From the sequence record OR352947.1: a stretch of 64,000 nucleotides of DNA; one strand, written 5' to 3'. The notes beneath the pieces were generated by a model. The model was not told the DNA's origin, made no database searches, and saw nothing but the letters and a program-made list of their open reading frames with translations. This DNA is from Escherichia phage AV117. The translations under genes were made by a program, and so were the position numbers. Below are positions 10,178-28,547 of the stretch, piece after piece; position 1 is the stretch's first letter; each line of letters opens with the position of its first letter.

Positions 10178-10648
10178 TTAATCATGTTTCCACACCCCAT
10201 CGGTATTTGACCAAAGTCGCTGATTATCTGATCCTCGCCACAGTTTTTTGGTCGGAAGATTTTTCTCATACTTCCCATCAATAATAACATCAACATATTT
10301 AAGCATTTCTAGTTGTTTAATATCTTCAAACTTGTACCCTGTCCACAACCAAATGCTTTTATTGGGATAAAGATTTTTTACTGTTTGAGCAATGCAATGA
10401 ACAACATCTCTGTTATCAGGATAAAGAGGGTCTCCTCCAGTTATAGTTAATCCTTCTATATAATCATTATTCAAACATTCAATTAATTGCTCTAGTGTTT
10501 CACCAGTGAATGGAATACCATTTCTAGCGTTCCATGTTGATTTATTATAACACCCTTCACATTTATGCAAACAACCTGTAACGAAAAGAACGACCCTGCA
10601 TCCAGGGCCATTCACAAAATCACAGGGATAAAATCTATCATAATTCAT
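10178..10648 (-). CDS. nrdG: Anaerobic ribonucleotide reductase activating protein NrdG (radical SAM)
   Basis: 156 aa with CLHKCEGC cluster motif; coupled to nrdD. Confidence 0.9.
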   Translation of the reverse strand: MNYDRFYPCDFVNGPGCRVVLFVTGCLHKCEGCYNKSTWNARNGIPFTGETLEQLIECLNNDYIEGLTITGGDPLYPDNRDVVHCIAQTVKNLYPNKSIWLWTGYKFEDIKQLEMLKYVDVIIDGKYEKNLPTKKLWRGSDNQRLWSNTDGVWKHD

Positions 10649-12462
10649 TGGTGTTTAACCCTATGCATGATTTCTTTATTTTTGCCGAGATTAAATCCAC
10701 GTTCATTCGGATTTCCAAGATAACCGCATGTTCTTCTTATTGTGTTCATCTTTTTAGGATCAGTTTCTCCACAAATAGAACAAACAAATCCGTTTTCGGT
10801 AGGAGTCATTTCATGGGTACTTCCACACGTAAAACATTTATCTACTGGCATATTAACACCAAAATAATCTAAATGTTGCGCAGCATAATCCCAGACAGCC
10901 TCAAGACCTTTTAGGTTATTTTTCATATCAGGAAGTTCAACATAAGAAATGTGTCCACCGGTCGCAATGAAATGATATGGGGCTTCGCGAGAAATCTTTT
11001 CAAACGGAGTAATATTTTCTTCTACTGAAACGTGGAAACTATTAGTGTACCAGCCTTTATCAGTAACATCTTTTACACTTCCATATTTTTCGATATCAAG
11101 TTTACAGAAGCGATAGCACAGGTTTTCAGCAGGTGTAGAATACAAGCTAAAAGCAAAACCGGTTCTTTCGGTCCACTGCTTAAGACGAGCATTCATTTTA
11201 GTTAAAATTTCCTTTCCAATATCACGACCGACAAGAATATTCAATTCGTGAATACCAATGTATCCTAAGGACACTGAACTTCTACCGTTTTTAAATAACT
11301 CAATTATATCGTCCTCAGGTTTAAGACGAACCCCGAATGCACCTTCTTGGTAAAGAATAGGAGCAACAGTAGCTTTAACTCCTTTTAAGGAACTAATTCT
11401 ACACATCAAAGCTTCAAAACACAGATCCATTCGTTCATTAAATAGCTCAACAAATTTCTGTTCATTGAATTGTGTTCCAATATAAGAATCTAACGCAATA
11501 CGAGGAAGATTCAGTGTTACAACACCAAGATTATTACGTCCATCAAGAATTTCATTACCGGTCGAATCTTTCCATACGCTCAAGAAACTACGGCAACCCA
11601 TTGGAGAAACAGGAACAGATGAACCGGTGATAGCTTTATTATTCTTAACTGAAATAATATCAGGATACATTCTTTTGCTTGCGCATTCTAAAGCAAGCTG
11701 CTTAATATCATAGTTCGGGTCGTCTTTATAAAGATTGACACCCTCTTCAACGAACATAACAAGTTTAGGGAAAATAGGAGTTATTCCATCACGACCAAGA
11801 CCTTTGATACGATTTTTCAGAATTGCTTTCTGAATCATTCGTTCAGTCCAGTCAGTTCCCGTGCCAAATGTAATTGTTACAAAAGGCGTTTGTCCGTTTG
11901 AACTAAAGAGAGTATTTACTTCGTATTCATACGCTTGGAATGCATCGTATACGTCTTTTTCTGTTTTAGATTGGGCATAATTCAACGCATCAGCGATTTG
12001 CCATTTTTCTGCATCCTCAATATGTTTTGCATAGGTGCGTTTAACATAAGGAGAAAGTACTTTATCTACATTAGCAAAAGTCGTTCCGCCGTACTGATGT
12101 GAAGCAACTTGTGCAGTAATTTGTGCCATAATTGCAGTAGCAACGCCGATTGATTTAGGAGTTTCAATTTGAGCATTGCCTAATTTAAATCCATTCTCAA
12201 GCATCCCCTTTAAATCGACTAAACAGCAATTAGTAAATGGAAGAGCAGGAGAATAATCAATATCATGGAAATGGATAATTCCGCTTTCATGTGCTTTCAT
12301 AATAAAAGACGGGACCATATTTTTGGCAATGTGCTTAGACACAATACCAGCCATAAGGTCCCGTTGAGTTGGAAAAACACGAGAATCTTTATTAGCATTC
12401 TCGTTCAAAAGATCTTTATTAGTTTTATGAATTAATCCTTCAATTTCTTTTTCAATTTTCAT
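10645..12462 (-). CDS. nrdD: Anaerobic ribonucleoside-triphosphate reductase NrdD (intronless)
   Basis: 605 aa; C-terminal glycyl-radical motif RRTCGYLG and C-x2-C...C-x2-C zinc ribbon; single uninterrupted ORF. Confidence 0.9.
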   Translation of the reverse strand: MKIEKEIEGLIHKTNKDLLNENANKDSRVFPTQRDLMAGIVSKHIAKNMVPSFIMKAHESGIIHFHDIDYSPALPFTNCCLVDLKGMLENGFKLGNAQIETPKSIGVATAIMAQITAQVASHQYGGTTFANVDKVLSPYVKRTYAKHIEDAEKWQIADALNYAQSKTEKDVYDAFQAYEYEVNTLFSSNGQTPFVTITFGTGTDWTERMIQKAILKNRIKGLGRDGITPIFPKLVMFVEEGVNLYKDDPNYDIKQLALECASKRMYPDIISVKNNKAITGSSVPVSPMGCRSFLSVWKDSTGNEILDGRNNLGVVTLNLPRIALDSYIGTQFNEQKFVELFNERMDLCFEALMCRISSLKGVKATVAPILYQEGAFGVRLKPEDDIIELFKNGRSSVSLGYIGIHELNILVGRDIGKEILTKMNARLKQWTERTGFAFSLYSTPAENLCYRFCKLDIEKYGSVKDVTDKGWYTNSFHVSVEENITPFEKISREAPYHFIATGGHISYVELPDMKNNLKGLEAVWDYAAQHLDYFGVNMPVDKCFTCGSTHEMTPTENGFVCSICGETDPKKMNTIRRTCGYLGNPNERGFNLGKNKEIMHRVKHQ

Positions 12463-12932
12463 TTTAAACTCTTTCTAAGCTGCTTTTTGAATGAAGCTAT
12501 TAATTGTGTTTTGGTATCAGATTCATTATATTCAAATCCTCTTTGAAGCATCTCAGCCATCATTTCCTCTTTACCTAGTCTTGAGAACTCTTTAGTTTTG
12601 TCTGGAACAAAATTAGGATGGATATTATTATCAGAATAATCTTGTTTCAAATAAGCAAGAAGAGCTTCAAGCCATTCGAGGTAGTCGACATCACGTCCTT
12701 TAAGACCGGAACGGTTGAACTTATGCTTCATTTGACCTTCTGCTGCGTTGCACAGATTACAGAGTAACCCACGAACTCTACCGGCTTGTGGCCCGTTTAA
12801 TTCGTGGTCGTGGTCAAGGTGGTTACCTTGAACATCAGGGTCTAATTCACGGTGGCAAATAGGACACTTACCGTTCTGTGCATCATAAAATTTTTGTTTT
12901 TCTTCTTTATATTTTGCGCCTGATAATAACAT
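12459..12932 (-). CDS. 49: Endonuclease VII (Holliday junction resolvase) gp49
   Basis: 157 aa, MLLSGAKYKEEKQKFYDAQNGKCPICHREL...HLDHDHELNG...; sequence matches T4 gp49. Confidence 0.85.
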   Translation of the reverse strand: MLLSGAKYKEEKQKFYDAQNGKCPICHRELDPDVQGNHLDHDHELNGPQAGRVRGLLCNLCNAAEGQMKHKFNRSGLKGRDVDYLEWLEALLAYLKQDYSDNNIHPNFVPDKTKEFSRLGKEEMMAEMLQRGFEYNESDTKTQLIASFKKQLRKSLK

Positions 12933-27112: not shown

Positions 27113-27411
27113 TACTCTTTGAAAGGAATTAACTTTTTAACTGCTTTAGATACTTCGTCACGAACCTGGTGGAAGTTCTTGAGCTGTTCAAGGCGTTGTT
27201 CGTAATACGCAATCTCATCTTCTTCAAGACAATCGTCAGCGTCTTCTTTCAGATATGCCTTGTACTCATTAAAGAGGGCCCATAGGCGATTCTCAAAGTC
27301 ATCAAGGCTTTGAATTTTCTTGTGCTTCGGAACAAGGCCAAAAGGATTGCTTTCAGTTATGCGTCGAGATGCTTCATAATGAGTTCCAAAGCCTGATAGG
27401 ATTTGAGCCAT
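27112..27411 (-). CDS. Hypothetical protein (vs.3 position)
   Basis: Start at ATG 27411 (MAQILSGFG...), overlapping the upstream stop (TAATG). Confidence 0.5.
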
Positions 27412-27656
27412 TAGTATTTTTCCTCTGGTTGAAATACCGCACGACAAGCCCACATACTAGCTTCCTTTAGGCGTTCTTTAGCACAGTTCAATTGGGACAA
27501 AGCAGTCAGAGCTTCAGGAGTATTTGCTGATAATGCTTCTTCTGCCAGGGCGTCTAGAATAAGTCCTAAACGAACTTCGGCATCTTTAATAGCGTTCACT
27601 TTACCGATTTTATCATCGGTATGCGGTTTGTAGCCTTTGATGTCTTCAATCGACAT
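27411..27656 (-). CDS. Hypothetical protein
   Basis: Start at internal ATG 27656 ([12 protein letters not shown]...). Confidence 0.45.
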
Positions 27657-27870
27657 AAGGAATTTCCTCATCTGTGGCAAGGTCATATTCGACCAATTGG
27701 ATAGGCTCATTAATACCATATCCGCGTACAGTGATATCAGTTGTCGGATAGTTTCCAGTAATATCACCCGTTCTAAATGCTTCAATGAATGATTGCTCGC
27801 CTGAGCAACTAAACCAGGCGGCAAAACATTTTAAAACATCTTCAGACCCTTCTATAATCAATTTAGCCAT
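27646..27870 (-). CDS. Hypothetical acidic protein
   Basis: 74-aa ORF coupled to the GrcA-like gene. Confidence 0.45.
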   Translation of the reverse strand: MAKLIIEGSEDVLKCFAAWFSCSGEQSFIEAFRTGDITGNYPTTDITVRGYGINEPIQLVEYDLATDEEIPYVD

Positions 27871-28232
27871 TATAGACTCTCAGTAAAGGTACGAGCGATA
27901 ACATCGCGCTGCTGTTCCGGAGTCAGAGAGTTAAAGCGAACTGCATAACCTGATACACGGATGGTCAGCTGCGGATATTTTTCCGGATGCTTAACTGCAT
28001 CTTCCAGAGTTTCACGACGCAGAACGTTAACGTTCAGGTGTTGACCACCTTCAATTTTAACTTTAGGTTGATGTTCAATTTCAATTTCACGAGCATTCAA
28101 ACCGTAGAAAATTTCTGGGTCTACAATAGCGTCTTCTTTAAAAGTCTTAGAGACAATAATCCGGGCTTGAGTACCGTCTTCAAAATAAATAGTGCCTTTA
28201 TGTTCACCTTCAAGAATTTGATATGCTTTCAT
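27870..28232 (-). CDS. grcA: Autonomous glycyl radical cofactor (GrcA/YfiD-like; T4 Y06I-type)
   Basis: 120 aa; C-terminal ~60 residues ...[59 protein letters not shown] carry the glycyl-radical motif RVSGY; SD GAGGT. Confidence 0.8.
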
Positions 28233-28238
28233 ATAACC

Positions 28239-28547
28239 TCAATTAGAAAATAAATTTATCCAAGATTTTTCTTTAATCAAAAATGGGTCGGAATTAAACG
28301 CCATTAAACTTTGAGTGATTAATCCCTTAAATGGCCCATCAATAAATTCCATTTTGAAATGCGGAATACTAGTCATCAACCGTGCATTAGGAGCAGTACA
28401 AAGAACCTGCTGCCCTGCGAACGGACCTTTAGTCAAACGATATCGTTTAGGTTTAAAATGGTAAATCTCGTAATTTTCTACAAGAGCCCTTTTATTGCAT
28501 ACTTGGCTGTTATAACAATACTCAAAAACTTCAATAGTGGTCATCAT
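28239..28547 (-). CDS. Hypothetical protein
   Basis: Start at ATG 28547 (MMTTIEVFEYCY...), ATGA overlap with the upstream stop. Confidence 0.45.
   Translation of the reverse strand: MMTTIEVFEYCYNSQVCNKRALVENYEIYHFKPKRYRLTKGPFAGQQVLCTAPNARLMTSIPHFKMEFIDGPFKGLITQSLMAFNSDPFLIKEKSWINLFSN

Follow-up and report, generated by a model that had tools for sequence, protein, structure and literature searches.

The vs.6 locus of phage AV117

The window analysed here, a 64,000-nucleotide (nt) stretch of Escherichia phage AV117 (OR352947.1), carries on its minus strand a short gene, vs.6, which is predicted to encode a GrcA-like glycyl-radical protein and whose second half is almost identical in DNA sequence to grcA of Escherichia coli. 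The open reading frame (ORF) runs from an ATG start to a TAA stop (27870..28232, 120 amino acids, aa) and coincides exactly with the interval flagged in an initial annotation made from the letters of the sequence alone. The features that bear on the argument are listed below by window position; GC3 denotes the G+C fraction at third codon positions.

27870..28232, minus strand: vs.6, ortholog of T4 Y06I, a 120-aa GrcA-like autonomous glycyl-radical 'spare part' protein (ORF listing, Pfam, phrog_1209, synteny)
28053..28232, minus strand: N-half, codons 1-60, an AT-rich, diverged homolog of the GrcA N-terminus (GC and GC3, hhalign)
27882..28052, minus strand: putatively host-derived tract, codons 61-117, the structured glycyl-radical domain (codon-by-codon comparison with E. 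coli grcA)
27906..28054, minus strand: longest perfect match to E. coli grcA, 149 nt that cover codons 61-109 and the 2 nt before them (identical-run search)
27948..27950, minus strand: predicted glycyl-radical glycine, codon 95 (GGT) of RVSGYAV (direct reading; equivalent to E. coli GrcA G102 and PflB G734)
27870..27881, minus strand: last three codons and stop (GAG AGT CTA TAA), a phage-type 3' end (E. coli has GAA AGC CTG)

The initial annotation had called the product a GrcA-like glycyl-radical protein with a counterpart in T4 Y06I, and both assignments stand. The window protein matches Pfam Gly_radical (PF01228, residues 59-101, E = 2e-18) and, over its full length, phrog_1209 (E = 5.9e-63), the orthologous group of T4 vs.6; with phmmer, its residues 21-120 align to the NMR structure of E. 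coli YfiD/GrcA (PDB 6OWR, 2e-42). Similarity to the pyruvate formate-lyase (PFL) PflB is limited to the last ~65 of its 120 residues (PflB residues 696-759). It is a small, free-standing protein in which the catalytic barrel of glycyl-radical enzymes is absent, as expected for this class of ~14-kDa proteins. The role of the RVSGYAV glycine is established for glycyl-radical enzymes (PMC8683613), and the motif is retained in all phage and host copies that we examined, in line with the expectation that other copies would keep the radical-bearing residue.

The window belongs to a T-even phage, and its best match is Shigella phage SSE1 (Mosigvirus, JS09 species; 98.9% nt identity over the query). 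The window gene is 93.1% identical to T4 vs.6 at the nt level (93-99% across T4T and SSE1, which were also compared), and its product shares 113 of 120 residues (94%) with T4 Y06I, including an identical radical domain. T4 Vs.6 is likewise 120 aa long and encoded between vs.7 and vs.5, and the order vs.7-vs.6-vs.5-vs.4-regB is the same in the window, T4 and SSE1. T4 vs.6 is already annotated as 'autonomous glycyl radical cofactor GrcA' in RefSeq (H216). By sequence and synteny, the window ORF is thus the Mosigvirus ortholog of T4 vs.6, whose product is a founding, tested member of the GrcA/YfiD spare-part family.

A host-identical tract in the second half of vs.6

Residues 61-120 (EGGQHLNV...TFTESL) match residues 68-127 of E. 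coli GrcA (WP_000627807.1) at 60 of 60 positions, as the initial annotation had suggested for the C-terminal ~60 residues and the enterobacterial protein. The same 60 residues, or all but 1-3 of them, are found in Citrobacter, Yersinia, Serratia, Pectobacterium, Edwardsiella and even Pasteurellaceae. Because these residues are invariant in many Enterobacterales, protein identity alone is weak evidence, and it is the DNA comparison that carries the argument.

An alignment of the DNA, proposed in the initial annotation to see whether identity extends to synonymous sites, was clearly positive. Compared with grcA from a complete RefSeq E. coli genome (L001), codons 61-117 (E. coli codons 68-124) are identical at 170 of 171 nt, the sole difference being a private GAC>GAT change at codon 110. 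Identity is complete over codons 61-109 (147/147 nt) and amounts to 179/183 nt over codons 61-121. On the 5' side of codon 61 most codons differ from E. coli grcA and identity is near random, with a sharp break at codon 60/61; at the other end, the final three vs.6 codons differ from E. coli grcA at silent positions. Such nt identity in codons 61-117 greatly exceeds chance expectation and is also higher than constraint on the protein would produce.

Comparisons among hosts calibrate this result. Over the 183 nt, hosts with the same 60 residues differ at 13 sites (Citrobacter) or at more than 20 (Yersinia, Serratia), and Salmonella, with two residue changes, differs at 29. E. coli grcA itself is identical to that of another Escherichia species at 181/183 nt, of Citrobacter amalonaticus at 170/183, of Cronobacter at 164/183, of Klebsiella at about 160/183 and of Salmonella at 154/183. 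This calibration, together with the identity at silent sites, indicates that the tract comes from E. coli or a very close Escherichia. A grcA gene 97.3-98.4% identical to the phage tract is present in 5426/5426 complete E. coli genomes. Most E. coli genomes have two or three places matching the radical-domain DNA (grcA, pflB and paralogs), and some have up to 21-22.

Base composition changes at the same point. Codons 1-60 have a GC content of 33% and a GC3 of 0.20, and the C-half has values of 47.5% and 0.38; E. coli grcA has a GC3 of 0.42 in this region, and the whole window a GC content of 37.5%. Similarity therefore changes abruptly within one ORF together with a matching compositional step, the pattern of psbA-type recombination, and the GC3 step and silent-site identity agree with the earlier suggestion of recently captured host sequence. 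Host grcA has no discontinuity at codon 68 across genera, and E. coli grcA diverges evenly along its whole length. From the composition and from this even divergence, we infer that transfer ran from host to phage.

The N-terminal half

In the initial annotation the N-terminal 60 aa were taken to be unrelated to GrcA. This does not hold: in a profile-profile comparison (hhalign; nine phage N-halves against twelve host GrcA N-terminal regions), the phage N-halves match host GrcA residues 1-67 end to end with 91.8% probability (E = 7e-7, 27% identity, 59 columns). Intermediate N-half sequences occur in IMG/VR phages of about 152 kb. The phage N-half is seven residues shorter than its E. coli counterpart. 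The same profile match led us to reject the idea of a chimera in which a host domain is joined to a phage peptide without relation to GrcA, and the phage gene is thus an old full-length grcA homolog with its C-half overwritten.

PMC8683613 describes YfiD residues 1-60 as disordered and as aiding both activation and the binding to cleaved PFL, with residues 61-127 forming the PFL-like radical domain. The junction (E. coli codon 68) falls at the start of this structured domain.

Host donors and distribution among phages

With E. coli grcA as the query, 632 phage records are 95-99% identical, with alignments all starting at grcA nt 199-205. The records belong to Tequatrovirus and Mosigvirus; besides Escherichia and Shigella, the isolates come from Yersinia, Salmonella and Citrobacter. 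With K. pneumoniae grcA as the query, 106 phage records are 95-99% identical from nt 202. Both totals are BLAST summaries; the set compared base by base comprises 23 E. coli-type and 5 Klebsiella-type phage genes, and the host panel holds 81+ host grcA genes, one genome per species.

Copies of vs.6 in Jiaodavirus (Klebsiella T4-like phages) encode L77 and E81, as Klebsiella does, have GC3 values of 0.55-0.60 (Klebsiella grcA, 0.67), and for this reason were compared with grcA of the K. pneumoniae complex. Over codons 61-114, identity to K. pneumoniae grcA is 159/162 nt in phage 15882-5 (159-160), 160/162 in IMG/VR locus L116 and 158/162 in Nispero, each of which matches E. coli grcA at only about 141/162. 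The window phage (Mosigvirus) shows the converse, with 140/162 for K. pneumoniae and 161/162 for E. coli. The longest perfect run with K. pneumoniae grcA is 131 nt, in 15882-5. This reciprocal identity implies at least two independent host-to-phage replacements, involving two host genera.

The 5' junction lies at the same codon in the E. coli-type and Jiaodavirus groups, and the adjacent upstream sequence is phage-type in both. Codons GAG118 and CTA120 are common to Mosigvirus and Jiaodavirus, where both hosts have GAA and CTG. In both groups the affinity of the exchanged segment follows the infected host species, independently of the phage backbone. Comparison of other GrcA-carrying phages (80 IMG/VR loci and several isolates) with the host panel identified only the T-even group and Jiaodavirus as host-identical.

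GrcA-like genes are also present in RaK2-like jumbo phages (L114, L115 and L117; 345-357 kb) and T5-like phages (L132-L158; 104-122 kb) from IMG/VR. Their products have N-termini related to the T4 type (MTIKAIQIL..., MKAYQNL...), and their AT-rich radical domains are not host-identical. The GrcA family is therefore widespread in enterobacterial phages, and the overwrite is not. Cronobacter phage JC03, compared with Cronobacter sakazakii grcA, gave 147/183 and no sign of an overwrite. A scan of metagenomes for the junction sequence returned five contigs, too few for population analysis.

Several individual copies deserve mention in their own right. In Klebsiella phage ATCCa (L198, PV239574.1; vs.6 at 221-583), the C-half has Met77 as in Enterobacter GrcA and is closest to a Raoultella grcA (153/162, versus 148/162 for K. 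pneumoniae). Its N-half matches other Jiaodavirus at 98%, a combination that hints at a further, third donor outside the host panel. In L116 (UViG_2974754850, 167 kb; vs.6 region 1501-1859) the vs.6 frame is open for only 80 codons and the N-half is frameshifted, reflecting either a pseudogene or a sequencing error. A 589-nt ENA contig (P0006) encodes a Klebsiella-type GrcA with PflB-type last ~20 residues (...SLTKEQQQDVITRTFTQTM), which is either a grcA/pflB conversion within a host or an assembly chimera; if real, it would mean that the radical-domain segment recombines between paralogs inside bacteria too.

Two further grcA genes come from genome contigs (L026 and L034): one is carried by a 275-kb record described as a Klebsiella sp. 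WOUb02 plasmid, and the other, an enterobacterial grcA (91% identity), sits on a contig attributed to Vagococcus sp. WN89Y. Vagococcus is Gram-positive, and this second case is probably contamination or mislabelling. Contig L118 (167/183 to Yersinia) was rejected as a phage sequence, having a full host-type N-terminus and probably being bacterial DNA, and loci L159-L168 were rejected as grcA because they are pflB.

Divergence of the tract relative to the phage backbone

To compare genera, 16 Tequatrovirus and 7 Mosigvirus sequences were used. The N-halves of the two genera are separated by a synonymous divergence (dS) of 0.35-0.53 and the C-halves by one of 0.02-0.17, and neither half is more polymorphic than the other inside a genus. 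Codons 1-60 contain 11 sites with differences fixed between Mosigvirus and Tequatrovirus, and codons 61-119 contain no such site (Fisher p = 0.0008; p = 0.013 on third positions only). A sliding window across vs.7-vs.6-vs.5 gives a between-genus divergence of 10-43% in the flanks and 1.2-2.3% at vs.6 nt 200-350, where divergence between the genera equals the diversity within them. Fixed differences at codons 57 and 120 close this low-divergence valley on either side, no more than four codons from the points where host homology ends.

Jiaodavirus shows the reverse pattern, in that the N-halves are 98-99% alike and the C-halves 92-96% alike (4-8% differing; p = 0.003-0.03 for several pairs). A common TCA/TCC polymorphism at E. 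coli grcA codon 101 also segregates in phages of both T-even genera (vs.6 codon 94), the window copy having the TCA allele and T4 the TCC allele. As a sign of host sampling this sharing is only suggestive, because the site is fourfold degenerate. The phages differ from E. coli grcA at 2-10 silent sites.

Proposed gene conversion and alternative explanations

We consider it likely that this vs.6 ortholog has a spare-part role and is a mosaic gene whose tract was converted from at least two host donor species. In what we see as the most likely mechanism, codons 61-117 of the phage gene would be replaced from host DNA during infection by non-reciprocal homologous recombination (gene conversion). 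The exchange would be confined to the sole segment in which protein constraint holds similarity at ~80-85%, enough to pair, and after a first event the near-identical segment would ease later ones. Donors would be E. coli for Tequatrovirus and Mosigvirus and the K. pneumoniae type for Jiaodavirus, with the same 5' junction, and replacement probably occurred more than once also within these phage groups. We also lean, with less assurance, toward a more general view in which vs.6 evolves in concert with grcA of the lineage's host, a ~170-nt radical-domain segment being repeatedly overwritten as the rest diverges.

Several observations weigh against this account, or limit it. Tequatroviruses isolated on Yersinia, Salmonella and Citrobacter still have the E. 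coli-type tract, and a Salmonella-type tract was not found when Salmonella grcA was compared with 50,697 phage records (best match 83.8%, in E. coli-type T-evens). Taken together with the 2-10 silent differences, these results imply that conversion is not frequent on laboratory or other short time scales. T-even phages degrade host DNA, and given this degradation the frequency of recombination between host and phage may be very low. Karamvirus, Pseudotevenvirus, Krischvirus RB49, T5-like and RaK2-like phages have no tract identical to any host in the panel. With respect to function, the window protein scores 159.1 bits with NCBIfam TIGR04365 (E. coli GrcA, 234) and does not reach the cut-off of 170 bits, which is the annotation threshold of an equivalog model and no functional test; the low score is due to the diverged N-half. 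The physiological benefit of vs.6 to the phage is itself a proposal. Finally, the tract shared by Tequatrovirus and Mosigvirus could stem from one host-to-phage event followed by phage-to-phage exchange, and the argument from the valley boundaries against such a swap is indirect.

In its full form, this last alternative holds that a single E. coli replacement in one T-even lineage was spread by recombination during co-infection, with one separate event in the Klebsiella phages. It would account for features that Tequatrovirus and Mosigvirus have in common, namely the position of the 5' junction and two codons unlike those of the host (GAG118 and AGT119), as well as for the retention of the E. 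coli tract by Tequatroviruses grown on other hosts, and free recombination between T-even phages that infect a cell together is well known. We nevertheless regard it as unlikely. The valley stops at codons 57 and 120, though phage flanks that are ~85-90% similar would let an exchange between phages run further; since it ends where similarity to the host gene ends, independent conversions from E. coli fit better than a swap between phages. Moreover, the phage consensus within the tract is the E. coli sequence rather than a phage-specific derivative, and Jiaodavirus with near-identical N-halves have C-halves up to 8% apart, so that several events are needed anyway.

A single ancient capture of grcA, with the silent sites of the C-half frozen by strong selection on codon usage or mRNA structure, is very improbable. 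grcA is highly expressed with biased codon usage, and the C-half protein is extremely constrained, being identical in many genera. However, the host genes themselves have diverged freely at these sites (dS 0.36 for Citrobacter and about 1.0 for Salmonella), and inside each phage genus the C-half is no less polymorphic than the N-half. Klebsiella phages have Klebsiella-specific silent codons at the same positions, and the N-half is saturated, yet the break sits within three nt.

Acquisition of the grcA C-half by E. coli and Klebsiella from phages hardly merits consideration: two-way exchange between host and phage has been proposed for psbA (PMC1484495), but the composition of the tract is host-like (phage C-half GC3 0.38-0.60 versus 0.20 in the N-half; E. 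coli 0.42, Klebsiella 0.67), comparisons of host grcA across genera show no break at codon 68, and grcA lies at the ung-grcA-eamB locus in all 5426 E. coli genomes, none of which has a copy of the phage N-half. An artefact, in the form of host reads in phage assemblies or of conversion during propagation on E. coli K-12 or B, is equally implausible even though most isolates were propagated on laboratory E. coli, as the tract is in frame in the phage ORF with a fixed junction in 632 independent records, including Sanger-era T4, occurs also in metagenome and IMG/VR contigs of 130-170 kb, and differs from E. coli at 2-10 sites, unlike a fresh laboratory event.

Predicted function and related systems

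The ability of Y06I to rescue oxygen-cleaved PFL, which the initial annotation had invoked, has been reported: T4 Y06I, like YfiD, receives its radical from the PFL-activating enzyme and restores oxygen-cleaved PflB (Wagner et al. 2001, as cited in PMC8683613). PMC8683613 counts Y06I as one of only two biochemically validated spare-part proteins. Given the 113/120 identity and the identical radical domain, the window protein would be expected to act like Y06I. The PFL-activating enzyme of the host would place a radical on Gly95, a step modelled on the literature, and the radical-bearing protein would then dock on host PflB cleaved by oxygen at Gly734, restoring the production of acetyl-CoA and formate. 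Fermentative energy metabolism could in this way be kept running during infection at low or fluctuating oxygen.

The closest known system is T4 Vs.6, which is a mosaic as well, with a C-half identical to E. coli grcA at 180/183 nt; its seven amino acid differences from the window protein all lie in the N-half, and the window represents a different genus (Mosigvirus). E. coli GrcA (YfiD; TIGR04365; 6OWR) has the same architecture of a variable N-half followed by a PFL-like radical domain, with the C-terminal 60 residues and the RVSGYAV glycine identical and the same expected partners, PflA and PflB. It differs in its N-half, which is about 27% identical and seven residues longer, and the window gene, unlike E. 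coli grcA, belongs to a lytic phage, whose own programme rather than host grcA regulation presumably governs its expression.

As evolutionary systems, vs.6 and the cyanophage genes psbA/psbD (Zeidner et al. 2005; Sullivan et al. 2006, PMC1484495) are alike in being host metabolic genes carried by phages and exchanging segments; the phage psbA/psbD copies have patchy G+C and have exchanged segments with host copies (PMC1484495). In vs.6, unlike psbA/psbD, exchange is limited to one defined half of a very short gene and has a constant junction, stretches of 130-150 nt are as much as 99-100% identical to a named host species, with reciprocity between E. coli and Klebsiella, and the gene resides in hydroxymethylcytosine (hmC)-containing T-even coliphages, which destroy host DNA. 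The GrcA genes of Karamvirus, Pseudotevenvirus, Krischvirus RB49, T5-like (Tequintavirus/Epseptimavirus) and RaK2-like phages belong to the same family, with MKAYQ/MTIKAIQ N-termini and similar sizes. They differ from vs.6 in that their C-halves are 65-85% identical in nt to any panel host (GC3 of some, 0.12-0.28), with no recent host overwrite.

The gene and its biochemical role are already known from T4 vs.6/Y06I. A literature search found no paper describing the vs.6/grcA mosaic at the nt level; the T4 genome review (PMC150520) lay outside that search, and Wagner et al. 2001 may mention it. What is new is the K. pneumoniae-type tract of Jiaodavirus at the same junction and the low divergence between Tequatrovirus and Mosigvirus inside the tract. 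The process resembles, by analogy, the intragenic recombination of cyanophage psbA/psbD, which provides a precedent (PMC1484495).

The value of the case lies in its evolutionary signal, an unusually clean, reciprocal, species-level identity to hosts in an intensively studied group of model phages. If confirmed on all available genomes, it would represent clean and experimentally tractable gene conversion from host to phage in virulent phages that degrade host DNA, in which copying, and not selection alone, keeps a metabolic gene in step with its host partners (PflA, PflB). The tract would record, in the phage's own DNA, the species on which a phage lineage recently lived, and would thus be a short marker for that host in T4-like phages or metagenomic contigs. 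Such segments can also mislead phylogenies and contamination filters.

Neighbouring genes and other observations

Further features of the window provide context:

28237..28240, minus strand: Shine-Dalgarno-like GAGG, 4 nt 5' of the vs.6 start codon; it overlaps the stop of the preceding vs.7-like ORF (direct reading)
10178..10648, minus strand: nrdG, anaerobic ribonucleotide reductase activase (Pfam Fer4_12, 6e-48, and Radical_SAM)
10645..12462, minus strand: nrdD, anaerobic glycyl-radical ribonucleotide reductase (Pfam NRDD, 3e-171, and Gly_radical; RRTCGYLG motif)

The stop codon of vs.6 overlaps the ATG of vs.5 (TAATG; vs.5 is the ORF at 27646..27870). The start region of vs.6 is a local minimum of between-genus divergence (3-6%). 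Promoter and terminator sites around vs.6 were no more numerous than in shuffled sequence.

The nrdD and nrdG genes named in the initial annotation are present, with the Pfam matches listed above, and it is a reasonable inference that these genes and vs.6 together represent an investment in anaerobic infection metabolism. Directly upstream of nrdD, as in T4, is a homolog of endonuclease VII (gene 49; 157 aa, 12459..12932, minus strand; Pfam PF02945 and PF09124).

Two genes downstream of vs.6, the ORF at the vs.4 position (27411..27824, minus strand) matches Pfam PF24729 (Acb2/Tad1 hairpin domain, E = 1.8e-17). Members of the Acb2/Tad1 family are phage 'sponge' proteins that bind cyclic-nucleotide immune signals. 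As listed, this ORF begins at a far-upstream TTG, and its true start is probably an ATG near 27656.

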